From NCBI GenBank assembly GCA_963796275.1, contig CAWCKY010000002.1:32001-96000 (forward strand): 64,000 bases of DNA, in the 5' to 3' direction. This document shows positions 1 through 12,501 of the stretch, in pieces. The notes beneath the pieces are model-generated. The model was not told the origin of the DNA, searched no databases, and saw nothing but the letters and a program-made list of their open reading frames with translations. Origin of the DNA: an uncultured Acidobacteriota bacterium (GTDB taxonomy: Bacteria > Acidobacteriota > Blastocatellia > RBC074). A program made the translations under genes and the position numbers. Numbering within the stretch: position 1 is the first letter of the stretch; the number at the start of each line of letters is the position of its first letter.

Positions 1-122
1 GAATGCCGTCGGTCTTCGATCGCCGTGGCAGTCAGTCCGGTGAAGACCGAGTACAGTCACTGAATCTCCTGATCGGCGTTGCCATTCTTCTGAAGAATGC
101 GTCAAGACTGAAAGCGCAATTC

Positions 123-3100
123 CTATTCGTGAACAAAGAAAGGGACTTTTCCTTGAACCATCGCTCCGCGCATATTGAGCATCAATTGATTCGCCCAATT
201 CTTTGCGCCCGCCTGCGCCGTTCGTGGAACGAATTTTCCGTCTTTCCAGACCTTTCCAACCAAGTCCCCGCGTTCGGGACGGATCATTGCGACGTGCCCG
301 ATCCCGCCTGGATTTTTCAACACTGCAACCGCCGGCAAGCCGAAGTTGGCAAACTGTTGGGCGACGTAACTCGGTTGCAAGAGCAACGGGGGAGAGGAAT
401 GTACGCTTCCGGCGATTCGCTCAGCAGCCTGGCGTAAATTGGCGGTGATTGCTGGGGCGTTAAGCTGCTGTCCGCCGCCCGCTTGGGATCGGGCGTGGAT
501 CCAATTGCAGAGAGCATTATCGATCGGAATCCATCCTCGGATACGACCGTTACTGCGCAGCCAGTCCACTGTTGCGTTAGCATTTAGCTCAGTCCACTGT
601 TTAGAATCGCGCTGATCGCAGTTGGGAAACCGTGATCGGCAAACCCAGTGAGGAATGCTTGCCCACATCGCACGCGTGACATCGTGAACATAGATGTTGC
701 AATAAGTAGGGCCTTTGGGAACGCGTCGGTAGCGAGCATTTTCGGGAACAGACCTATCGCTCTCGCCGACGTTGAAGTAATCGAGAACAGCTTCGTAATT
801 CGCCTTGCCACGATTCGATGGATTGTTCCACGGCGCGTCCTTGTCAATGATGTCACGACTCTTTCCTCGCTCAGGCCAGCATCTACCAGTGCCGGATGAG
901 CAGATGGTTCCTGTGATCCCTTTCAGCGGGCCTTCTACAGGCGGAACAGTAGCCGACGATTGAGCAGGTTTTGTGGTGGGGGTTGAGGGCGATCCCCAGC
1001 GCCCGAACCTGTCTGTGATCCCTCCCCATTCCAATTCCTGACTTGGCTGTGCGGGAGCCGCCGGCAACCGCGTTTGCAAGGTCGTTCCCAACCGTTCCTG
1101 CCAGTGATGAATCGGGACCCAATTGTGCCCCTTCGCTGCGGAACGCGAGACGAAGATGTTGGGAACCTTTTTCTGTTTGAGCTTCTCGGACCGCACGCGC
1201 GTGCTGCTTTGATAATGAATGAAGAGCCGCGCGTCGGGGCGCGACTTGGCCCATTGCGCCCAGAGGTTTTCGTCGCCGGTGAAGTAGAGGCAATCGAAAC
1301 CCCAACACTCTTTGATGTGACTGGCGTAGCGGCTCTTGCCCATCGCCAATTGACGCATTGGCAGCCCGCCGCCTGAATGGCAGGCGAGGATGAGGTTGCC
1401 GAGTTGCGGACGCTGACCCTGATACGGACCGTGCGTCGCCAGCGCGGCCAGCGCCTGGTCAACGTATTTGTCTAGCCCGCCCGGTTGCGCCAGCCATCCG
1501 GTCTGCGTTTGCGAGCGCGGGCCGAGCGTCGGCGCGACGAGAAGGAAATTCTTCCCGCTTCGATTCAGTCCCTCGCGCAGAGGCCAGGTTGGGAAGTGGC
1601 TCCGGTTCCAGTAGCTGTTGACTGTCAGGTCGGCTTTAGGCTTAACGCCATGCAGGTAGATGATCAAGTCCACTTTCGGCTCCGGTCGGAAGTTCTGCGG
1701 GATGAAGATGCCCGTCATGGGCTTAGCGGGCCGTTCGGCGCCGAGGGGAATGCTGACGTAGAGCGTCTGGCCCGGCGGCGTCTGCTCCTGACCGATCAGG
1801 CTTGGTGCGGCAGCTGGCGCCGTGAATTCGTCGTGGATCGGACCGATCCCTTCATCCTCGAATTCCTCTTCAAACTCCTGGAATTCTTGGAAGATTTCAG
1901 ACTGTGGCGAAGCTTGAGGGTTGTATTCCCAATGCCACGGCTCACGTTCGTAGGGGTAGAAGCCGAAGCGGCGCGCATTCGCAACCAACCAGCGGTAGGC
2001 AGGCAAAGTCCGCAAATTGGCGACGTCGCCGCTGGAATTTTTTCCGCCCAGATAGATGTCAATGGCGCGGCCGCTCTGATGTGCACTCCCGCCGGGCGGC
2101 GCCACCCATTTGCGCGCCTCTTCCGGAGAGCCGTATTTTTGGAGGGCAGTTGCCCAGAGCCGAGCCTGGTGGGCTGGATCGCGGAAGCCGCTGGTCAGTT
2201 GCAGCAAGGGCGCTTTGATCCCGTCCGCCCTAGCCGCGCATTGCATCGCGTCGAGCGCCTTTGCCGTCAGCCTATGCAGTGGAACAGTGCCGCCGAAGGC
2301 GCGTTTGACGAGAACTATATTGCTAGCATGCGGAGCGGTCTTATTCTTCACGCGACCGCCGCCCGGATTTTCTAGCACCACCGGCGTGAATGATGCACAG
2401 ACACCGGCTGATTCAAACTCCACGGTAGGGTCTGCTGCCTCAAATTCGAACTCCGTCAGACCGGGAAAGAGCGAAGACAGCCACGGAATCTCCTTATCGG
2501 CATCGCCATCCTTCGCTGCATCGGCAGAGCTGTTACTTGTCGCCGCATCATTCGACGCTGCGCCTGGGGGACCGTTACTCGTGGCGGCATCACCGGGAGC
2601 GCCATCAGGCGGAGCGCCGGCCGCGGCGCCGTTTGTCTTTGCACTGGCGCCGCCGCGCGTCGCGGCCACGAGCGCCTGTTCGGTATCGGGGCCGACTATG
2701 CCCGTCACCGGGAGATTTTCCCGGCCTTGAAAGCTGCGAACGGCTGCGCGCGTGGGCGCACCCATTACGCCGTCGATGGGTAGGTTTAATTTAAGAAGAT
2801 TATTCAATGAGACTTGTACCCATCGGACGCGCTCGTTGCCTCTGCGTGCCTGATCGTCGCCTACTCTTTCTGGCCTCTCCGGAGGCGGCTGCGGACCGCC
2901 CGAAGGCGCGGAATCCTGCCGAGGCTCCTGAGGAGTGGGTTCAAGCCGAATGCCCGGCCACGCCGGAAAAGGAATAAGGCCAGCCGGGCGTTTGATCCGG
3001 CGTCGAGGCCGTTTGCCCGCCTGCTGTTTGCGTCCGCCGGCGAATTTGCGCTCGGTAATGGATTTGCGCCTGGCAATGGATTTGCGCGCGGCAATAGATT

Positions 3101-3263
3101 TTTGCCTGGCAGTGGGCTTGCGCGCGGAAGAAGCTGTGCGCCTCGATCTTCTGAGCTCGTCCTCATCTTCTTGTTCGTAATTGGAGTGCTGCGAGCCGAA
3201 TTCCTCTTCTTCGTAATTAAAGGGCTGCGAGCCGAAAGCTTTAAGTTCAAATCTGTTGTTCAT
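123..3263 (-). CDS. Multidomain cell-wall hydrolase-like protein (PG-binding + M15B D,D-carboxypeptidase + alpha/beta hydrolase + Cys-His amidase-like domain)
   Basis: 1046-aa ORF. PG_binding_1 pattern (VRWVQVSLN..IDGVMGAPTRAAVRSFQ..LPVTGIVGPDT); VanY-type motifs SGFR, SAHQSGRAID, EPWHWEY; nucleophile elbow ACHSGGG; C-terminal TYCNIYVHD..GHVAMIRP. No signal peptide. Confidence 0.85.
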   Translation of the reverse strand: MNNRFELKAFGSQPFNYEEEEFGSQHSNYEQEDEDELRRSRRTASSARKPTARQKSIAARKSIARRKSITERKFAGGRKQQAGKRPRRRIKRPAGLIPFPAWPGIRLEPTPQEPRQDSAPSGGPQPPPERPERVGDDQARRGNERVRWVQVSLNNLLKLNLPIDGVMGAPTRAAVRSFQGRENLPVTGIVGPDTEQALVAATRGGASAKTNGAAAGAPPDGAPGDAATSNGPPGAASNDAATSNSSADAAKDGDADKEIPWLSSLFPGLTEFEFEAADPTVEFESAGVCASFTPVVLENPGGGRVKNKTAPHASNIVLVKRAFGGTVPLHRLTAKALDAMQCAARADGIKAPLLQLTSGFRDPAHQARLWATALQKYGSPEEARKWVAPPGGSAHQSGRAIDIYLGGKNSSGDVANLRTLPAYRWLVANARRFGFYPYEREPWHWEYNPQASPQSEIFQEFQEFEEEFEDEGIGPIHDEFTAPAAAPSLIGQEQTPPGQTLYVSIPLGAERPAKPMTGIFIPQNFRPEPKVDLIIYLHGVKPKADLTVNSYWNRSHFPTWPLREGLNRSGKNFLLVAPTLGPRSQTQTGWLAQPGGLDKYVDQALAALATHGPYQGQRPQLGNLILACHSGGGLPMRQLAMGKSRYASHIKECWGFDCLYFTGDENLWAQWAKSRPDARLFIHYQSSTRVRSEKLKQKKVPNIFVSRSAAKGHNWVPIHHWQERLGTTLQTRLPAAPAQPSQELEWGGITDRFGRWGSPSTPTTKPAQSSATVPPVEGPLKGITGTICSSGTGRCWPERGKSRDIIDKDAPWNNPSNRGKANYEAVLDYFNVGESDRSVPENARYRRVPKGPTYCNIYVHDVTRAMWASIPHWVCRSRFPNCDQRDSKQWTELNANATVDWLRSNGRIRGWIPIDNALCNWIHARSQAGGGQQLNAPAITANLRQAAERIAGSVHSSPPLLLQPSYVAQQFANFGLPAVAVLKNPGGIGHVAMIRPERGDLVGKVWKDGKFVPRTAQAGAKNWANQLMLNMRGAMVQGKVPFFVHE

Positions 3264-3443
3264 CTTTGCCTCTCATTCCTCGCCTTCGCCGCTCCGTGGG
3301 AGCAGGAGGCGCCGATCTATGTGGGTATACCTGTGAGTGCGACCACAGGAACCGTGGCGCACATGCACCGGGAGCCGCGAAGAGGCGATACAGAACTCGG
3401 TTTGTCGCCCCTTCGGGGCCGGGGATTTGGTGATCAATCGTCG

Positions 3444-5147
3444 TCACTTTTTCCCGGACGACTTGGCCGGGATGAGCGCCCGGCGGCGCGACGCGGGCAG
3501 CGCGGAGGAACCGGCCTCTCCGGCTGGCAGCGCTTCGCGCACCGGAGCTGGAAGGCTGCCGCGTGTGCTTTGCCTGGCCAGCCGCTCGCGCAACAGCGTC
3601 GACGGTTGAACGTAACGAGTCGCGGCCCCTCTGGTATCCACAATGTCTTCCGACAGGTCGACGCCGGTGGCCGTTTGGTAGGCGTGGATGTAGTTCTGGA
3701 TTTCGGGCCTCCAGTAGCGCGCCCAGTTCTTGGCGGCCTCCTGGTCGTTGATGACGCTCCAGTCGCCGTAGCGGACCGACAGGATGACCTGCTCGCCGTA
3801 AACCGACAGATTGCGGAAGTGTGTGATCGTAGTGTCGGTCCAGCCCTGCAGCTTCTTCATCGAATCGACCTGCCCCATCCAGCGTTCGTGGTATGGGACC
3901 ATCGCGCGGCCACGCAGGAATTCGCGCATCTCGGGCCTGGCCAGCATCCACTGCATTGTCAGCATCTCGGCGCGTGCCGTCCACGGCAGGTCGCCGAACT
4001 GGTTGTGCGCGCCTTCAGCCAGCAGCAGGTGAACTTCGCGCAGCGAGTTGAGCAGCGGGAAGCCGTCCGCGATGACCGTCGTGTGGGAGTCTTCGTGGTA
4101 GAACCACGACGCGCGGTGAAGCAGGCCATGAAAGGCCTCGATGAATTTCGAACGGCTGTCGGCGGAGCGCAGTTCTGGCACGGCCTTTCCCTCAAGCCGT
4201 AGCCCGTAAAGGTGGTCATACTCGTAGGCGCGACGCGGTACAGTCAGGCGGTTGTACTCGTCCTGGATAAACCCCCAGAGCAGGTTGTTGAGTGGCCGCA
4301 GCGCGTCCAGCTCAAGGTTGGCCAGAGGGTCGTTCTCCACCGGGCCGCGCTTATTCTGGAAGCGTAGGCAGATGGCGTTCATTGTTTGGACCAGCATGCC
4401 CTCTTCATTCCAGTACGACCAGATCAATTCGAGCAGGCTTGGGCTACTGAACCGGTTGAGCAGCAGTTGCTCGCAGTAGTGTAGCTGCTGCGCGTTCGTG
4501 CTGACTAGCGCGTCGACGATGCGCCGGAGGTAGGGCAGGCGCGCGCCGCCCGGCAAGGTCGAGCCGAGGTAGTCGTTGAGCCGGCAGCGGATCTCGTTGA
4601 AATTGACATTTTCGCCGAGTCTCCCCTCTTCGCCTGGAACGGTGCCGTTCGGGTCAATGTCGGGTTCGCCGGTCGATGGATTTCTGGGGGGTTTGACGGC
4701 GACGCCCGCCTCGCAGAGCAGGAAGGCCTGCGTCGCCGCCTTGAGCATATTGTAGGCGTCTACCCCGTAGACGCTCGGGGCGGCCAGCAGATCACCCTTT
4801 CGATCATAAATCGAGGGGGCGCTGATCTCGCCCAGTGAAGGACCATCCACGCTGGGAGCTGTGTCAGCCGCTTCTGCCGGTTCAAGCGAGCCTCCCGGGG
4901 TATCCTCGACGCCCAGGACGCGGTCGATGAAGAACCGGTAATTGTCGAAGCCGATGGCCTCGGTGCGATTGCGGATCGCGGCCCAGAGCACCTGGTCGGG
5001 CGTCTGTGCGACATCGGGCCGCGTGAGGCTGACCCGGAGCGGTGGCCGTGGCGGTCCACCCCTGACGACGATGCAGTCTGCTAGTTGATTTTTCTGGGTA
5101 TCGATCGGGAGATCGCCCCCGGTTTGAATATCGATGTTGTTTGCCAT
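3444..5147 (-). CDS. Hypothetical protein, 567 aa, function unknown
   Basis: Long ORF with GGAGG RBS overlapping the upstream stop; W/Y-rich globular C-terminal 350 aa; no catalytic motif recognised. Confidence 0.8.
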   Translation of the reverse strand: MANNIDIQTGGDLPIDTQKNQLADCIVVRGGPPRPPLRVSLTRPDVAQTPDQVLWAAIRNRTEAIGFDNYRFFIDRVLGVEDTPGGSLEPAEAADTAPSVDGPSLGEISAPSIYDRKGDLLAAPSVYGVDAYNMLKAATQAFLLCEAGVAVKPPRNPSTGEPDIDPNGTVPGEEGRLGENVNFNEIRCRLNDYLGSTLPGGARLPYLRRIVDALVSTNAQQLHYCEQLLLNRFSSPSLLELIWSYWNEEGMLVQTMNAICLRFQNKRGPVENDPLANLELDALRPLNNLLWGFIQDEYNRLTVPRRAYEYDHLYGLRLEGKAVPELRSADSRSKFIEAFHGLLHRASWFYHEDSHTTVIADGFPLLNSLREVHLLLAEGAHNQFGDLPWTARAEMLTMQWMLARPEMREFLRGRAMVPYHERWMGQVDSMKKLQGWTDTTITHFRNLSVYGEQVILSVRYGDWSVINDQEAAKNWARYWRPEIQNYIHAYQTATGVDLSEDIVDTRGAATRYVQPSTLLRERLARQSTRGSLPAPVREALPAGEAGSSALPASRRRALIPAKSSGKK

Positions 5148-5156
5148 ATTGCCTCC

Positions 5157-6509
5157 TTAAATTTTGGCGAATGAAAATGATGGCGCGGCCAGCCGGCTCC
5201 GCGATGGTTTAGCGCAATTGATTTTGTGATTGAGCGAGTCGCGCAAAGCCCAGTAAGTGAGCATCTTTGACAAGACCCGGCTCACTTCTTCCGGGCCGAT
5301 CAGGCCTTCGAAGAGGGCCTGACCGATCACCGCGAACACCATTGCCGGCGAGGCCCGGTACATCTGAGCAGGCTGTGCCCGCCAGGATTGAAAATGTTCC
5401 CCTAAACGCGTGGGCTGTCGCTCGTCCGTTTGCAGGACTTCTTCGAGCGAAGCGCCGCGAAGAGCCTTTGGCCGGTGGTGGGCGAAGATCGTCGCCAGAG
5501 CCGGCATAGTCTTTTCGAGCAGCGCGAGAGTGCGGCGCTTCTCGCGATCTCGATCGTCCGGCGGGTAATAAGCGAGCCAGGTCTGTTCCAGCCTGTCCCA
5601 TTGCGGGTGCGGGAAGAGCGCCCGCCCGATGGCGATGCTCAAACGCACCCGGATCCAGGGAACCGGGTGCGGGTCGTCCAGATTCAGCCGGAAGACGAAG
5701 TACCGCGGCAGAGTCACGACTCCCATCAGCCCCAGCGTCGAGGTGATCCCAACTCTGGCAACCGACCAGAAATCGGCGAGGATCTCCGAGATGCAACGAT
5801 CCCAATATGCCCAAGCCTCGCTCTCCTCGCCGCCGTTGCGCTGCAACCCGCGCAGCACTTGCCTGATCGAATCGATCAGGCCGAGCAGCGCCGCGGCCTG
5901 ATGTCCGACTTCATGGATCAGCGACGACGCGATTCCGCTCCCCACCATTCGCTCACGCGGCACCCGGATGATGGCTACGGGGTTTTCGCCCCCGCCCGGC
6001 AGCCGCGTCCTTGCCCTACGGATCGCCGCGCCGTGCCCGCGATCCAGGTAACAGACCAAGCCGGGCGCCCGGTAGTAATCGCCCGACACCGAAAGGGCGT
6101 CCGCCGCGACGGCGTCCAGTCCCGACAGCCAAACCCCGGTTTCGTGCTCGCTGCGCTGCGTCAGCGCGTCAGCGAAGATGTCGAATTGGGACAACGTGAC
6201 GTTGAACTGAAGTCGCAGCATTCTGAAACGCTGGTGCGCCACTTCGATCGAAGCCGATTGCCCTGCTGGACCGCGCAGCCAGTCGAGGTAGCGGAGCACC
6301 AGCCGGTGGAGTTTGCCCCGGCCATCGATCAGGTAACGGTCGATGGCGCTCAGCAAACCCGGGGACAGTGCCGCCGCCGGGACCATCGTTTCGTGTAGGG
6401 CGAACGGCTTGACCTGACCCAGTCGTGACAGTAAGGCCTGTGCCTCCTGATCGAGCAGACCGAGGGCTGGTGAACGGGCCAGGAATGATTTGGCGAGTGT
6501 GGCGGTCAT
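5157..6509 (-). CDS. Putative zinc metallopeptidase (HEXXH)
   Basis: LIHEVGH, downstream EILAD (third ligand) and DPHP..WIR (M48-like HP..R); starts 3 nt after the upstream stop. Confidence 0.75.
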   Translation of the reverse strand: MTATLAKSFLARSPALGLLDQEAQALLSRLGQVKPFALHETMVPAAALSPGLLSAIDRYLIDGRGKLHRLVLRYLDWLRGPAGQSASIEVAHQRFRMLRLQFNVTLSQFDIFADALTQRSEHETGVWLSGLDAVAADALSVSGDYYRAPGLVCYLDRGHGAAIRRARTRLPGGGENPVAIIRVPRERMVGSGIASSLIHEVGHQAAALLGLIDSIRQVLRGLQRNGGEESEAWAYWDRCISEILADFWSVARVGITSTLGLMGVVTLPRYFVFRLNLDDPHPVPWIRVRLSIAIGRALFPHPQWDRLEQTWLAYYPPDDRDREKRRTLALLEKTMPALATIFAHHRPKALRGASLEEVLQTDERQPTRLGEHFQSWRAQPAQMYRASPAMVFAVIGQALFEGLIGPEEVSRVLSKMLTYWALRDSLNHKINCAKPSRSRLAAPSFSFAKI

Positions 6510-6512
6510 GGC

Positions 6513-7283
6513 TCAGGCCCCCATAATGACAATGGATTTACCGCGACGGATCCAACGCCCGGTGGCTTTATGCGAACACCTCTTGCCGTTGGTGTGACCT
6601 TCGGGCCTGCCGGCGGTTTGGCTCGCGGCTGGGCGGAGCAATCCGGGGGCGTGCTCTTGGGCGGCGGACGTCAGCGCGGCTTGCGCGGCCTGCAGCGGCG
6701 GCATCGATCCAGGGGCCTGAGCGGCGTTCTGTGCGGCGGCGCCTGACAGGCGAACCACCTGCTTGGCGACCTCGAACTCCTGGTCTTCGTAGCTCAACCC
6801 TTCAAGCTCCAGCCCTAACATTTGGCCCCCGGCCGAGGCTAACTGGCCCCCAATGGCGCCCCCGACGCCCGGCAAAAGGAAGTTGCCTGCGGCGCTGCCC
6901 AGCATCGGCATAGCCGTCTTGGCGACGCCCTTTAACGCCCCACCTAAAGCGCGACCGACCGGCGACTCGATAGCTTTACCAAACTTGCGGCCGATCTTTT
7001 TGAAGAGTTTACCGATGAACTGATCCAGCTCGGCCTCGTTCGAGATGGTCAGCAACTCAGCCGCCAGCTCCATCTCTTCTGCCTCGCTGAACGGGCTTTC
7101 CATCGCGTATTCGCCCATGTACTCGCCATCGGTTTCAGACTCCTCGTACTCCTCGCCTATGTATTCGCCGTCGGTTTCAGACTCGTGGTCGCCTTCAAGC
7201 TCGTATCCGAATTCGTCGGTCTCAAATTCACCGTCATACTCGCCGTAGTTCGACTCCAGGTTTGTGCGGTCAATGTTGTGCAT
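6513..7283 (-). CDS. Hypothetical protein with acidic N-terminus, cationic amphipathic helix and glycine zipper
   Basis: AAGGAG RBS; D/E-rich first 88 aa; FIGKLFKKIGRKFGKAI; GxxxG repeats; basic C-terminus GRWIRRGKSIVIMGA. Confidence 0.85.
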   Translation of the reverse strand: MHNIDRTNLESNYGEYDGEFETDEFGYELEGDHESETDGEYIGEEYEESETDGEYMGEYAMESPFSEAEEMELAAELLTISNEAELDQFIGKLFKKIGRKFGKAIESPVGRALGGALKGVAKTAMPMLGSAAGNFLLPGVGGAIGGQLASAGGQMLGLELEGLSYEDQEFEVAKQVVRLSGAAAQNAAQAPGSMPPLQAAQAALTSAAQEHAPGLLRPAASQTAGRPEGHTNGKRCSHKATGRWIRRGKSIVIMGA

Positions 7284-7369
7284 AAATTTCTCCTTGTTGA
7301 CTTCGTTGACTTCATAGACTTCGGTTTATGGTGCGGGCTGCCCGGATACCGAGCGGCGATCGTTGCTTC

Positions 7370-7385
7370 TGCATCGGGCGTGCCA
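7370..7385 (-). promoter_or_regulatory. sigma54 -24/-12 promoter
   Basis: Minus strand TGGCACGCCCGATGCA versus consensus TGGCACGNNNNTTGCW (one mismatch), about 90 bp upstream of the 7283 start. Confidence 0.8.
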
Positions 7386-7389
7386 GTGG

Positions 7390-7402
7390 TAAGTTATTGA
7401 TT
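7390..7402 (-). promoter_or_regulatory. IHF binding site
   Basis: Minus strand AATCAATAACTTA matches WATCAANNNNTTR exactly and lies between the sigma54 box and the repeat array. Confidence 0.7.
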
Positions 7403-7418
7403 TTTCGTGCGGTGAGGA

Positions 7419-7554
7419 CGAAAAGTGCCTCGATGAGGCGAAAAGTGCTTCGGTGAGGCGAGAAAAGTGCTTCGGTGAGACGAAAAGTGCTTTGGTGCAA
7501 CGTATGGTGCTTCGGTGAAGATGGAACTCGAGGAATCTGGCGAAGTTATCTTCG
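7419..7554. repeat. Phased ~20-bp tandem repeats (CGAA-N6-TTCG), candidate enhancer (UAS) array
   Basis: Copies at 7419, 7439, 7461, 7481, 7501 and 7541; core cgaaaagtgcttcg. Confidence 0.75.
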
Positions 7555-7649
7555 GAAGACCCTAACCCCCTGTTGCAGACCGTTCCATAAAATATGGTCG
7601 AATATGACTCATACTTTACGCCGGCGCTTTTGTTTATTTGCCGCCGGCA

Positions 7650-8046
7650 GTTTCGCTCTCTGATTGACGCGCGATTTGATCTCAGGCGCTCCGGCGCGTT
7701 CTAGAGTCGGCCCCGGAACGGTCACCGTCCTGATCTTCCCATCCTGAGATGAGGCATTCCGGTGTTCCAAGCGGGACTAGTACCTTTCGACAAGAATCAT
7801 CCTGACGGTCTCTTTAGGCGTATAAAGAGTGATCCTCGGATCATTGACTCTTGCCTTCTGGTTGATTGCCGCGATCACATCCGCATGGCCCGCGTGCCAG
7901 CATTTGACGCACTGAAACCTATCTCCCTTGCGATTCGCCTTACTCAAATAACCGCAAGCGGGACAGGTTTGCGAGCTGTATGCCGGATTGACCTGCTCTC
8001 GACGGCATCCTGCCGCCGACGCCTTGAAGCCGATCCTTTCCCTCAA
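7650..8046 (-). mobile_element. tnpB: tnpB 3' remnant with probable omegaRNA tail (lineage A)
   Basis: VNPAYSSQTCPACG..NRKGDRFQCVKCWH..HADVIAAIN (RuvC/zinc finger); downstream tail ends gtcaatcagagagcgaaac. Confidence 0.75.
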
Positions 8047-8194
8047 CGCGTGTCGATGCCAATAACTCTCATCGTCGGCGCCGTGATAACCTATATCAGA
8101 GATATGATCCTTAATGATCGTCCGAGTAAATCGTGAGTAACGTGAAACCGGGCCAGTGGTTTCGGGTAAGGAGAGAGTAATGCGCCTGCCGGCG

Positions 8195-8527
8195 TCAGAG
8201 CGGAAGTCGAGTTATTTGGCCAACCAGACTCTCCAGGTCGGTAGGCCACAGCGCGGCGAATGCGGCGGCATAATCCCGCCCACGTTGTTGTGGGATCGCC
8301 AAAAGAAGGATTCCGAATTGGGGCGTCACGTAACGGCCAAGCTACGCCGCGTCGAAGTCTTTGTCGCGTGTGATGAAAAGATCGAAGTCCGTGCGCGCTC
8401 GCGTCAAGAGGTCGCCGTTTTTAATGCCTTTCCAACCGATGAAGTTTACGGATTCGGCCGTGTGCCCGGCTGAGCGCAAGAACGGCTACACATCAACAGG
8501 GACGTTTTCGTCAAGCAGGATTCTCAT
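8195..8527 (-). pseudogene. DUF5615-like PIN toxin, inactivated
   Basis: MRILLDENVPVDV*PFLRSAGH..FITRDKDF with two in-frame TAG codons; start overlaps the antitoxin stop. Confidence 0.75.
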
Positions 8528-8760
8528 CGCACTACCGCAAGCGCGCAATGCGCGGCGAGTCGCTCAACTGCGGAGACGGCATTCAACGTGACCGACGGAA
8601 ATGACTGAACGATCTCCTCGGGTGTGACTCCCGTCTCGAGCAGTTCGAGGATCTGCTCAATTGAAACCCGCGTGCCGCGCAGACGGAGTTTGCCGCTGAG
8701 CACATAGGGAGTCTGCTCGAAGTAATCACGCAACGAAGCTGGAATATCGATCAAGTTCAT
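8524..8760 (-). CDS. DUF433 family antitoxin
   Basis: P.VLSGK..LRGTRVSIEQILELLETGVTPEEIVQSFPSVT. Confidence 0.85.
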   Translation of the reverse strand: MNLIDIPASLRDYFEQTPYVLSGKLRLRGTRVSIEQILELLETGVTPEEIVQSFPSVTLNAVSAVERLAAHCALAVVR

Positions 8761-8802
8761 ACCAACATTTTATCGCAGCCTCGGTTGAGCCGCCAGTAGG
8801 CA

Positions 8803-9330
8803 TAATAGTGGGGGCTTGCGATTCGACTCTTAGAGTCGTCCGCGATTGGCTGATTGACAGCAGCCCTGCTCCGAATGTTGAGAGCAGCGTTGATGTCGGC
8901 GTTACGGCAGTGACCGCATTGCCGACATTTGAAAACATTTTGAGATTGCCGGTTAACTTCGGCAGCGATCCGGGCAATCCCGAGATCAATACCGAGATAG
9001 TCATCCGGGTTACACGGCGACTCTTCGACTACGTTGACCGTCGCAAACAAGTACCATCGGCCTTTACGGTAGACCAGATCAGATTCACCCTGGCGGGATG
9101 CGAGCAGAATCTTTTCTCGCTCTCCACCAACAAACGGAATCTTCTGTCTGCCTGTGACAGTCCAGATAGAAACGTAGTTTTCGCCGTAACGAAGAATTCG
9201 ATCATCGAAAGCAATCGAACCGTGCTGGTGGAAGGTTCGTTGACGTTCGTGGTCGAGCTTATACGTATCAGCCACTTTAGCGATTACGCGAACGGCAACC
9301 TGAGCGGAAATATCGAATTGTTCACGCAGA
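8803..9330 (-). mobile_element. tnpB: tnpB remnant with in-frame internal deletion (lineage B)
   Basis: YLGIDLG (RuvC-I) joined directly to NRQSQNVFKCRQCGH.NADINAALNI; right-end sequence caagcccccactat is truncated. Confidence 0.85.
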
Positions 9331-9640
9331 GCTCGCCCGCAGGTAATCGAGCAGCGCCTCCCGCACCGACGGGTCGCCGACTTCCCTCCCCTAATTATCT
9401 CCACCCTTGACCCCGCCACCAATGATCATCGTCTCGCCCTCGATCTCGACGTCGCGTCCCCGCATCGAGATCACCTCGCTGCGTCGCATCCCGGTTGTGA
9501 GGTAGAAAAGCAGCAGCGCGTAGTCGCGTTTGCCGGTCAGGCCGCCGTTTTCGGCCTTCGCCTTGACTACCCCGAGCAACGCCCGCAGCTCGTCGTCGGT
9601 GCGCGATTTGACGCTGCGTGTTTGGTAGGTGACGGGGCCT
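9331..9640 (-). pseudogene. Tyrosine recombinase internal fragment
   Basis: RDYALLLFYLTTGMRRSEV box I, followed by an in-frame stop; fused to the tnpB remnant. Confidence 0.8.
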
Positions 9641-9643
9641 TGG

Positions 9644-10060
9644 TCAAGATTCTTGTTTCCCAACGTGCGCCTTTGTAGATGCCAATCCTGCCGACTCCGC
9701 CGGTGGTAGTATCGCCTGTTGGTGGAGAGGAGTGCGAAGTGATACCTTCATCCGCCACCGAGGCGAAAGCGCTCCATAAGCCGCAGTCAGCATTCCGGCT
9801 AGTAATAACAGAACGCCGACCGCGCCAATCCAGCCACTCTGTTTATCTGCGACCAGCAAGGTCAGACCGATGATGCAGTAGACAATCCCCAAGAACATCA
9901 GGTTAGTCGTTCGGTGCGGCTTACTGGCGTCGCTCTCCGCCTGCAGCAGTGCGGGATCAGTCGAGGAGAGATGCATCGAAATGACCCATAACTCCGTGCC
10001 ACAGGATCGGCAGAATTTTTGATCCGTTGAAACTTTTGTTCCACAAGTAGGGCATTGCAT
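9644..10060 (-). CDS. Zinc-ribbon membrane protein, probably 3'-truncated
   Basis: MQCPTCG..FCRSCG followed by two hydrophobic helices. Confidence 0.65.
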   Translation of the reverse strand: MQCPTCGTKVSTDQKFCRSCGTELWVISMHLSSTDPALLQAESDASKPHRTTNLMFLGIVYCIIGLTLLVADKQSGWIGAVGVLLLLAGMLTAAYGALSPRWRMKVSLRTPLHQQAILPPAESAGLASTKAHVGKQES

Positions 10061-10104
10061 GATGATCTCCCAAACCCATGACCTTTTCGAAATGGTGCTG
10101 GCGC

Positions 10105-10242
10105 TCAGAGTTTTTCGGCAGCCTGTTTCGGCGCATCGTAAAAATACGACGGCTTGTTCGGCCACATCATAAGGAGCGCGAAAAGCATGATGAGGCCCGT
10201 AAAGATCAGGCTGAGCTGAAAAGTTCCGATGCGTGTTTTCAT
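10105..10242 (-). CDS. Possible small membrane protein (45 aa)
   Basis: MKTRIGTFQLSLIFTGLIMLFALLMMWPNKP..; directly follows the upstream stop. Confidence 0.35.
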   Translation of the reverse strand: MKTRIGTFQLSLIFTGLIMLFALLMMWPNKPSYFYDAPKQAAEKL

Positions 10243-10243
10243 A

Positions 10244-10654
10244 TTAGTAACTATCGTCCCCAATTCCCTGGATATCGGAAAGAGCGGGCTCTTTTTGAAT
10301 ATGCCCTATGTGAGCGGAAACGCTCACATAGGGCAAGCCCATGGATCGTTTCGCGGCCAAATTCGTAATTTCCAGGCAATTAAAGTTCTTCGATTTCAGG
10401 TTCGCGATGACCTGCTTGATCGCCTTACGTGTGGTCTTCTTCTCATCAGAACCGAAGACGTTAGCTTCAATCACACCGGCGATGTATAAAAAGTTCCATC
10501 CTGCATTGCTGACGATTTGATCCAAGCCTTTACTATCGAGGTTTCTGACCAGTCTCCATCCATAAACATAAGGCTCGCTTTCGAACAGTAAGGACTTCAA
10601 TAAAAGGGCCCCTTCCGCGATTAGAATGGTCCCCGTTTTGATTGTGTTTGCCAA
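10244..10654 (-). CDS. Hypothetical protein
   Basis: TTG start behind a GAGGAGG RBS within the 195-aa ORF; globular composition. Confidence 0.6.
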   Translation of the reverse strand: MANTIKTGTILIAEGALLLKSLLFESEPYVYGWRLVRNLDSKGLDQIVSNAGWNFLYIAGVIEANVFGSDEKKTTRKAIKQVIANLKSKNFNCLEITNLAAKRSMGLPYVSVSAHIGHIQKEPALSDIQGIGDDSY

Positions 10655-10697
10655 TAATTCCTCCTCGCTAAGGATCGGCCAGCCTGGGATATATTGC

Positions 10698-10713
10698 TGT
10701 CCAGTATTGGACA
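10698..10713. promoter_or_regulatory. Palindromic operator, copy 1
   Basis: TGTCCAGTATTGGACA; recurs at 13470 and 14747. Confidence 0.6.
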
Positions 10714-11097
10714 ATTTTCGGAAAGAAAAGTGGCGGAGTGGTGCCGGCTGTTTTTTACGCCCGCTCCAACAGTTGCACAGGGCACCGGCGAGATGCCGTA
10801 ACCAAGGCGAGATGGCTTTCATCTCATTCAAGAACTCTGTGCGCGCGGACGATAAATCTTTCGCTGCTCCTCCCTTCTTACTTCTATCTCTTCTGGATAT
10901 CAGCTTGGGGATGTTTGAGGAGTCCGCTCAAACAGCAGTCCCAGGCTGTGAAACAGCGATATATACCTATATTCAGGATCGTTGGCAGGATGTTATCCCG
11001 CTGAAGAATTACCGTAGGAAAGAAATATGCAAGCATCTACGGGCTGAATTTCATGGCTGATCTGATGGATGGCAAAAGATGTGTATATACTAGCGTC

Positions 11098-11280
11098 ATG
11101 GAAATCGAGTATGAATTTGCTTGTCCAGGTTGCTGGCAACCAATCACGATGCTATTGGATTTGAGTGTATCGCGGCAACAATACATTGAAGACTGCGAAA
11201 TATGCTGTCGCCCAATTCTCATTTCATATGAGTCAAATGGAGAAGATATTCTCTCATTTGAAGCTCAGCTAAACATCTGA
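11098..11280 (+). CDS. CPXCG-motif cysteine-rich protein
   Basis: CPGCW..LDLS..QQYIEDCEICCRPI. Confidence 0.85.
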   Translation: MEIEYEFACPGCWQPITMLLDLSVSRQQYIEDCEICCRPILISYESNGEDILSFEAQLNI

Positions 11281-11370
11281 AGCCTTTTTCGGATTGTCCG
11301 GCGCGAACGCCCTTCTCATAGCCGTAGTTCACAGCTTGCCAGAACATATCCACACCATTGCGGCAGGCCA

Positions 11371-12501
11371 TCACATTTTCAGCTCGGCGCGTGTGAGCAG
11401 GTAACGCAGAATCTGATCGCGTGAAATCATTCCTTCCAGCCGTCCATTTGCTAATGCCGGCAACTGGTTGACGTTATCGCGTCCGATGATCTCCAACGCT
11501 TCGCTGACAGGTGTTTCCGGCGTCACGGTCTTCAGCCGTTCAAGAGGGCGCATCACATCATAGACAGTGGTGTAAGGCCAGCGCTCCTTTGCGATGCCTT
11601 TGACCTCATTCGGAGTAACCAGCCCAGTCACCTCACCCTGCTCGGCGACCAGGAAACAGCTCCGTCCTGTGGGAAGCAAGTAGTCGTGAACGAACGTATG
11701 CAGATTGGAATTGCCGTCCACCACGGTGCAGTCACGCGTCATCAAATCGCCGACGCGCACGCCGCGCAGGCGCTCGGTCAGTTCCTGCTGCGCATAGGCG
11801 GCCTTCGCCGCACCGAGCAGAAACCAGCCAATGAAGGCCATCCACAATCCGCTGAAGCCTGCGCCCCCGATGAAGCGGATCATACCGAAGATGATGAACG
11901 CAAAGGCGACAATCTGCCCGGTCAGTGAAGCGGCGCGCGTTGCCCGCTGCACGCTGCCGGTATGCCACCAGACGATGGCGCGGAGTACACGTCCGCCATC
12001 CATCGGAAAGCCGGGCAGCAGATTGAAAACCGCCAGCCCGATGTTGATGTATCCCAGCCACACCAACATCGCCATCAGGGGCGTGATCGGCTCTGCCGTT
12101 ATCGTCCAGCCGAGCAGCCCCGCCAACATCAGGCACACGAAACCAATTGCTGCGCTGGCGATGGGGCCGACGACGCTAACCAGGAACTCGGTCTTGGCAT
12201 CCTCAGGATCTTTTTCGAGTTGCGCCACGCCGCCGAGCGCAAACAGCGTGATCGAACGGACAGGCAGTCCACGCCATCTGGCAACCATCGCATGCGACAG
12301 TTCGTGCGCGACGATGGCAGCAAAAAAGAGTATGGCTGTAATAATCGCCATGCCCCAGATCACGCCCCGGACCCAGTCCGGATGCGCCGCCCCGAAATGC
12401 CCCGCGAGCGAGAACGCAATCAGCAGAGCGATGATCAGCCAACTGTAGTGCAATCCGATTTCGATGCCGAAGATTCGGCCCAGTTTAATTTGTGCTTCCA
12501 T
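11371..12501 (-). CDS. Site-2 protease (M50) with CBS domains
   Basis: [19 protein letters not shown], several TM helices, C-terminal CBS pair. Confidence 0.92.

Follow-up and report, generated by a model that had tools for sequence, protein, structure and literature searches.

In the holin-endolysin cassettes of phages and tailocins, and in type 10 secretion, peptidoglycan hydrolases without a signal sequence are combined with a small membrane-active protein, and a membrane lesion is needed. Colicin M and pesticin are bacteriocins released by lysis that target the cell wall, and type VI secretion systems (T6SS) have their own wall and membrane effector families, Tae, Tge and Tle. A further logic is that of the eukaryotic defensins and cathelicidins, where an anionic pro-piece neutralises a cationic peptide until proteolysis. 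Here we describe a bacterial gene island that shares features with all of them. It was found in a stretch of 64,000 nucleotides (nt), called the window throughout, from an uncultured Acidobacteriota bacterium (Blastocatellia, RBC074; assembly GCA_963796275.1, contig CAWCKY010000002.1, here C2:32001-96000), whose genome comprises 9.46 Mb in 7 contigs. Four genes at the left end of the window encode a protein that is first acidic and then cationic (A), a putative zinc peptidase (B), a protein that matches no family (C) and a peptidoglycan-targeting enzyme (D), the latter being one of a varied class that we call cargo. They are the promoter-proximal half of an island of about 14 kb whose plan is conserved across many phyla and which ends with a sigma-54 activator. 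Judged from its sequence, the A-B-C-cargo-activator island is probably a new kind of system, absent from the literature searched.

The plan of the island was established by comparison among genomes. In a collection with one genome per species, at least 556 of 599 pattern-matched stretches encode a relative of C, and the best 80 of these at least 556 matching stretches formed the comparison set. Presence of a gene was scored by tblastn, independently of the calling of open reading frames (ORFs), and a locus was informative when it extended at least 3.5 kb upstream or at least 9 kb downstream of C. Among the 72 loci with sufficient upstream sequence, A was present in 71 and B in 71. The 47 loci with sufficient downstream sequence contained the activator (45), an Amidohydro_2 enzyme (39), peptidoglycan-binding cargo (33), a BioF-like pyridoxal phosphate (PLP) enzyme (30) and an M20 enzyme (11), and 43 of the 45 loci that were long enough in both directions had A, B and the activator together. 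In the gene maps one order recurs: A, often in two copies, is followed by B, C, the PLP enzyme, cargo, in some cases M20, Amidohydro_2 and, on the opposite strand, the activator; the Nitrosomonas loci of the set have this common layout. An earlier sequence-only reading of the stretch had expected a fixed A-B-C trio followed by variable genes, often with acidic leaders, and both expectations were borne out.

The distribution of the island is wide and patchy. According to the record titles, the 80 loci come from Acidobacteria, Alpha-, Beta- and Gammaproteobacteria, Verrucomicrobia, Planctomycetes, Chloroflexi, relatives of Geobacter, Haliangiales, Rhodothermales and others, and in these best 80 loci C is 49-68% identical to the query. 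In the phylum of the host, C was found in 4 of the 401 sampled genomes, its own genome included, and in neither of those sampled from the same family. A plasmid collection contained C on only 4 large replicons, which have no annotation there. No RNA run was listed among the sequencing runs containing it, and the contigs obtained from three soil-metagenome runs were short, of low depth and from relatives, with nothing to be read on expression or transcript ends. To judge from the sequences, such patchy spread with high identity is typical of transferred conflict modules, and together with the strong conservation of the plan it points to a strongly selected, transferable function.

Comparison with the described systems reveals partial likenesses. 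As in holin-endolysin cassettes, D is a signal-less, cytoplasmic hydrolase, with PG_binding_1 and VanY domains, and its peptidoglycan-binding part matches endolysin-type families of PHROG. However, A has neither a transmembrane helix nor a PHROG holin match, no phage structural family recurs in the conserved neighbourhood, and the island contains several diverse hydrolases, an HEXXH protein, an orphan protein of 567 residues, enzymes of metabolic type and a sigma-54 activator. A prophage lysis module was set aside, no phage genes being found in that neighbourhood. The signal-less wall enzymes with an unstructured N-terminal segment resemble colicin M and pesticin, and release by lysis of the producer is plausible. 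On the other hand, the island has no receptor-binding or TonB-box domain that could be identified, no lysis lipoprotein and no immunity gene (by a crude heuristic, 0 of 90 cargo-zone ORFs bear a signal), and its core genes are unrelated; on the last two absences, of immunity gene and lysis lipoprotein, a classical colicin operon was rejected.

The cargo of the island, with amidases, CHAP, glucosaminidase, muramidase, M23 and phospholipase D domains and a Tae4-like lead for D, resembles the effectors of T6SS, as does its polymorphic, exchangeable content. In contrast to T6SS loci, the families that recur in the neighbourhood include no structural gene of a T6SS or of a contractile-injection system. 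Nor do the 25 most frequent of the 111 Pfam families matched in the rest of the window, a list in which no secretion-system family of any kind appears; immunity proteins are missing as well. For want of structural genes, an island of T6SS or contractile-injection cargo was discarded. Finally, A and cargo proteins, in which a cationic segment directly follows an acidic one, recall the charge-masked pro-peptides, as does the conserved putative protease beside them, although the island is bacterial, cytoplasmic and composed of several proteins. No named system with this layout was known to the sequence-only reading, and searches of Pfam, NCBIfam, PDB, BFVD, PADLOC, PHROG and the literature gave no match that would change this. 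The literature searches, to which subscription journals and supplements were out of reach, returned no description of the gene set.

A and the cargo have a charge pattern in common. D starts with an acidic leader (residues 1-36, net charge -5) followed by an Arg/Lys-rich segment (residues 37-100, +7 to +8). In A, some 90 acidic, aromatic-rich residues with -4 to -10 per 20 residues precede a cationic stretch of +2 to +5. The cargo set comprised 85 ORFs of at least 150 residues, taken from the 70 loci in which a C ORF was called; each is located after C and before Amidohydro_2 or the activator. Among the A proteins, 42 of 72 have an acidic window (net charge of -6 or lower) followed by a basic one (+7 or higher), and so have 33 of 85 cargo proteins, compared with 4 of 253 controls; at least four Glu-aromatic motifs lie within the first 45 residues of 41 of 72 A and 19 of 85 cargo proteins, compared with 1 of 258 controls. 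The numbers for cargo are minimum estimates, since N-termini are often falsely extended by the longest-ORF caller. The Glu-aromatic motifs that the sequence-only reading had seen in the first and last proteins are hence real and general. By crude heuristics, 41 of 360 flanking controls have a signal-peptide-like N-terminus, compared with 0 of the 90 ORFs in the cargo zone; for transmembrane-like segments the numbers are 60 of 360 and 2 of 90.

The repertoire behind these leaders is diverse. The Pfam census of the 85 cargo proteins gave PG_binding_1 (42), OmpA (14), DUF2272 (6), Trypsin_2 (6), Amidase_2 (5), VanY (4), Glucosaminidase (3), CHAP (3), M23 (2), Rv2525c-like (2) and, once each, Muramidase, M74 and PLD (phospholipase D). 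D itself has PG_binding_1 at residues 143-198 (E 1.4e-14) and VanY/M15 at 329-449 (E 1.7e-21), and among PDB sequences it matches D-Ala-D-Ala carboxypeptidases (best E 4.5e-8). Its domains at about residues 500-760 and 820-1046 matched no Pfam family. The C-terminal one had been read as CHAP-type, which was not confirmed; a language-model search gave instead a lead to Tae4-like amidases (score 0.92, rank 26), with no Pfam support.

On these grounds we favour, with a probability of about 0.4, an inducible, protease-matured weapon of lysis or release that works through a charge-masked A and charge-masked cargo. In the model, the activator senses a signal, upon which the whole set would be synthesised in the cytoplasm, harmless as long as its charges are masked. 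B would then remove the acidic pro-segments. Unmasked A, with its cationic and glycine-zipper parts, would damage the inner membrane, taking a holin-like role without a classical transmembrane helix, and the unmasked, polycationic peptidoglycan-binding hydrolases would in this way gain access to the wall. Lysis or leakage of the producer would release a bacteriolytic cocktail that may act on neighbouring cells. C and the conserved enzymes of small-molecule type would be required as well, with no place among these steps.

The same leaders would also suit a non-lytic route of export or packaging, the view of the sequence-only reading. The acidic-aromatic leader would be bound by B and C, perhaps with A as the membrane conduit, and the hydrolases would be packaged or exported while the cell stays alive, which would be a new secretion route. 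Leader-like N-termini common to A and to unrelated cargo enzymes, a trio that stays fixed as the cargo varies, a cargo zone devoid of Sec-type signals and a repertoire resembling secretion-system effectors all speak for it. We regard it nevertheless as improbable, given that the island encodes no conserved ATPase, integral membrane protein or outer-membrane component, and that B and C are predicted to be soluble and helical.

The properties of the three core proteins bear on both the favoured model and its rivals. None of A, B and C has a match in NCBIfam or in Pfam, even at E<=10. The highest mean Kyte-Doolittle hydropathy over 19 residues is 1.15 in A, 1.55 in B, 1.08 in C and 1.13 in D; none reaches 1.6, a value exceeded among the operon proteins only by the core of the M20 enzyme. 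With their acidic or hydrophilic N-termini, A to D thus agree, by this crude hydropathy test, with the earlier statement that they lack Sec or Tat signals. PADLOC contained no family for B, C, D, M20, Amidohydro_2 or the PLP enzyme and gave one marginal match for A (E 0.0096), whereas PHROG offered no holin or lysis match for A and nothing usable for the core proteins.

Of the 2081 relatives of A at E<=1e-10, not one bears a functional name; the Joint Genome Institute (JGI) label 'DUF697 family' is attached to 7 of the 120 listed. The family alignment contains a conserved helix, EMELAAELL..EAELDQF, and both the start of the protein (MHDIDRT or MHNIDRT) and the C-terminal GRW motif are conserved across phyla. 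The latter, GRWxRRGxxIVL, marks 55 of the 72 A proteins, and none of 946 other ORFs has it; in 3 of the 85 cargo proteins a GRW motif is located near the N-terminus. These conserved ends are what would be expected of recognition sites for maturation enzymes, and A is often duplicated in the gene maps of related loci. They would suit a reading with A as the real product, a toxin of bacteriocin or modified-peptide type matured by B, C, the PLP enzyme and the amidohydrolase, and helped by the wall hydrolases to reach its target membranes. The presence of several conserved enzyme genes in the island, and the enzyme-like richness of C in invariant polar residues, agree with such a scheme. It is, however, the least probable of the explanations considered here: A proteins of 200-340 residues are far longer than known modified-peptide precursors, neither an exporter nor an immunity gene is present, and the PLP enzyme is absent from the entire genome of our bacterium and is consequently not essential.

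Under the favoured model B would be the maturing protease. All 36 aligned homologues retain its H199, E200, H203, E242 and D246, and E242 or D246 could be the third metal ligand. The model of B (predicted local distance difference test, pLDDT, 86.5; predicted template-modelling score, pTM, 0.85) has strands at 150-156 and 178-184 ahead of the HEXXH helix (192-208), together with large helical domains. Searched against PDB with Foldseek, it gave a best E of 0.045 and template-modelling (TM) scores of 0.17 or lower, all hits being unrelated membrane proteins. Complex prediction of B with residues 1-130 of A scored 0.00, a value that counts neither for nor against binding. Among 8000 candidates scored, 5381 relatives of B were found at E<=0.001. 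One of them, P0279, 80% identical to B, has the precomputed label PF28072.1, and the same protein was without a Pfam match at E<=10 in our hands; the label suggests that a bare Pfam entry for the B family may exist, and a very recent one may cover it.

C has 5086 relatives at E<=0.001 among 8000 candidates scored, and an exhaustive HMMER search gave 1066 clusters at 50% identity. The 120 relatives listed have no Pfam domain and are all named 'hypothetical protein'. The predicted structure is all-alpha (pLDDT 80.2, pTM 0.78); Foldseek gave a best E of 0.65 with TM scores of 0.13 or lower in PDB and a best E of 0.14 in BFVD, the ESM Atlas returned no usable match, and the sequence profiles of B and C found 0 matches among PDB sequences. 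Invariant polar residues of C include E240, E248, R262, N265, R305, R306 and E309. Because of such residues, and of the HEXXH, E242 and D246 of B, both proteins look like enzymes on the basis of sequence and model. Many relatives of C (e.g. P0139, P0142 and P0217) are 100-250 residues longer at the N-terminus. Ten long homologues compared with Pfam gave a single weak match, to CarboxypepD_reg (E 2.3e-4), and these extensions suggest optional additional N-terminal domains.

Control by sigma-54, as proposed from the sequence, is well supported for the first locus. Alignment of nine acidobacterial upstream regions showed invariant columns for two CGAA..TTCG palindromes and for YGGCAY..TGCA. In 34 of 55 loci, compared with 25 of 324 control regions, the sequence upstream of A contained an element of the form GG-N10-GC scoring at least 8/10; its distance from the start codon was usually 55-70 nt. 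Between the two parts lies the sequence AATCAATAACTTA, which fits WATCAANNNNTTR, the consensus of integration host factor (IHF); the AATCAAnAACTTAC block is nearly invariant across the nine regions. It would be expected that IHF binds there and that the activator binds the palindromic repeats upstream of A. The search for sigma-70-like sites in positions 1-7800 of the window found 0, with 1.8 expected. In the C-D spacer no GG-N10-GC element scored above 6/10; D would probably be transcribed by read-through from the A promoter. In addition to the conserved promoter and the adjacent activator (45 of 47 loci), one gene family stands beside the activator within the island in four loci (L042, L049, L067 and L071), from Chloroflexia-type genomes and Palleronia. 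Its L042 member, the sole one scanned with Pfam, is rpoN.

The closest PADLOC models of the activator are generic AAA+ stress regulators of the RtcR/PspF type. This type of regulator would agree with a sigma-54-gated module directed at the producer itself, for wall remodelling or suicide during abortive infection, the release of DNA in biofilms, dormancy or the formation of cysts. Only the cell's own wall would then be attacked by the hydrolases, and the dipeptidase and the amidohydrolase would process the released wall peptides; the cytoplasmic M20 dipeptidase and the conserved Amidohydro_2 would fit such salvage, and the lack of visible immunity genes speaks for this reading too. Among the three rivals this one is the best placed and still unlikely. 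The rapid turnover and multiplicity of hydrolase types, the phospholipase D cargo and a decayed cargo gene find no explanation in self-lysis and are typical of arms-race modules, and a patchy, transfer-like distribution is unusual for a developmental programme. Cargo diversity, the decayed gene and patchy spread favour a role in conflict over pure self-remodelling.

Several observations weigh against the charge-masked weapon that we favour. The low hydropathy of A makes its insertion into the membrane an assumption. A plain lysis cassette needs one hydrolase, and C, Amidohydro_2, M20 and the PLP enzyme would be superfluous there; their strong conservation is not accounted for by the model and hints at some other chemistry. 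No immunity gene is visible in the island, the 90 cargo-zone ORFs being without signals, which is unusual for a weapon. These last two points weaken the simple picture and keep the three rivals alive. Taken singly, the promoter motif is not above chance in the window (60 matches with up to 2 mismatches, 63 expected), and its weight comes from conservation rather than from the window match alone. Upstream of the second copy of the island in the same genome there is no -24/-12 element, palindrome or IHF-like box. The longest-ORF caller behind the cargo statistics is crude: 10 of the 80 loci were left out for having no called C ORF, and an antisense artefact family of ORFs ('f6') had to be dropped. 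A bolder version of the weapon would be a new, Sec-independent and sigma-54-gated class, in which the zincin B and the new-fold enzyme C mature A into a membrane conduit, exchangeable leader-tagged hydrolases of wall and membrane are delivered through it to competitors and the outer membrane of the producers replaces immunity proteins. In this complete form we consider it somewhat unlikely.

Features of the island and of its second copy are collected in Table 1.

Table 1. Position of the elements of the island, in window coordinates unless a contig is named (C2 and C4, contigs of the same genome).
Feature	Position	Strand	Description
Candidate upstream activator sites	7410-7497	-	4.2 tandem copies of a 20-nt unit, each with a CGAAG..TTTCG palindrome; Tandem Repeats Finder score 121
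IHF-like element AATCAATAACTTA	7390-7402	-	regular-expression match to WATCAANNNNTTR; AATCAAnAACTTAC block nearly invariant in 9 aligned loci
-24/-12 element TGGCACgcccgATGC	7371-7385	-	87 nt upstream of the A ATG; one mismatch to TGGCAC-N5-TTGC
Gene A	6513-7283	-	256 residues; acidic Glu-aromatic N-terminus, cationic stretch, glycine-zipper segment, C-terminal GRWIRRGKSIVI motif
Gene B	5157-6509	-	450 residues; putative zinc peptidase with HEXXH (HEVGH, 199-203); helical N- and C-terminal domains
Gene C	3444-5147	-	567 residues; highly conserved all-alpha protein (predicted), no family match
C-D spacer	3264-3443	-	180 nt
Gene D (cargo)	123-3263	-	1046 residues; PG_binding_1 and VanY/M15
143-residue ORF	directly downstream of D, left of the window	same as D	acidic N-terminus
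560-residue gene	left of the window, after the 143-residue ORF	same	acidic-aromatic N-terminus, C-terminal VanY
Decayed cargo gene, as read from sequence	C2:28705-29671 (L004:14705-15671)		967-nt gap between the 560-residue gene and M20
M20 dipeptidase	left of the window, beyond the 967-nt gap	same	NCBIfam PRK08201 (533 bits; cut-off 441)
Amidohydro_2 enzyme	left of the window, between M20 and the activator	same	
Sigma-54 activator	C2:25023-26405	convergent	Sigma54_activat (E 5.6e-57) and HTH_8
Paralogous copy	C4:990165-997036 (L005:6165-13036)		A'-B'-C'-cargo-Amidohydro_2

The ORF listing agrees with the earlier description of four intact, co-oriented genes, the first three tightly coupled: they span 123-7283 on the minus strand, with gaps of 3 nt between A and B (6510-6512), 9 nt between B and C (5148-5156) and 180 nt between C and D. 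As had been suspected, the unit continues beyond the left end of the window, since cargo, M20 and Amidohydro_2 on the same strand, and then the convergent activator, are found there. The unit of four genes did not stand; the real one is the island of about 14 kb with Amidohydro_2 and the M20 dipeptidase, extending over about C2:25023-39283, i.e. some 7 kb further left. The N-terminal part of the 560-residue protein matched 0 Pfam families. The 967-nt gap contains three out-of-frame pieces matching approximately residues 520-712 of the 712-residue cargo protein of a related locus, and a short match to the start of Amidohydro_2; from these remnants, it is a decayed cargo gene within the island.

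Just past the activator, at C2:23370-24476 (L004:9370-10476), a protein of 368 residues with RRXRR and HNH domains (Pfam E 2.4e-67 and 1.9e-13) is encoded. On the other side, past A, short ORFs at 7777-9663 of the window look, on inspection by eye, like parts of a TnpB-type transposase (zinc finger CPxCG..C..CG) and an integrase fragment. The island is thus bordered on both sides by apparent mobile-element genes. These ORFs fit the earlier impression that many neighbours are broken, which rests on a few of them read by eye and was not confirmed. The remainder of the window (7300-64000) contains three more sigma-54 activators, several PAS-domain sensors, short-chain dehydrogenases, SnoaL-like proteins, glycogen phosphorylase, glucose-6-phosphate dehydrogenase (G6PD), transaldolase and a large WD40 protein. 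No Rfam RNA family was found in positions 1-12000.

The second copy of the island, on contig C4, is 58% identical to the first in A', 72% in B', 59% in C' and 77% in the Amidohydro_2 paralogue. Its cargo is a different protein, of 694 residues with two PG_binding_1 domains. Read by eye, its upstream neighbours are a divergent pair of extracytoplasmic-function (ECF) type sigma and anti-sigma factors and a large TPR/CHAT-like protein. With an ECF-like pair at its side and without sigma-54 elements, this copy may be wired, and hence regulated, differently from the first locus.

The core families are very large, with more than 5000 relatives each of B and C and more than 2000 of A, all without a functional name. 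B and C have confident predicted folds, and no relative was found in PDB for either nor, for C, among the viral models of BFVD. Should our mechanism prove wrong, the fixed gene set would still allow a direct test in culturable carriers, among which are strains of Nitrosospira, Methylobacterium, Bradyrhizobium and Geotalea. If wall-cutting enzymes are indeed released without a known secretion system, the island would represent a new way in which bacteria of soil, wastewater and nitrifying communities antagonise each other or undergo programmed death, and it would provide a natural set of lysins that cross the outer membrane together with a clean sigma-54 switch.

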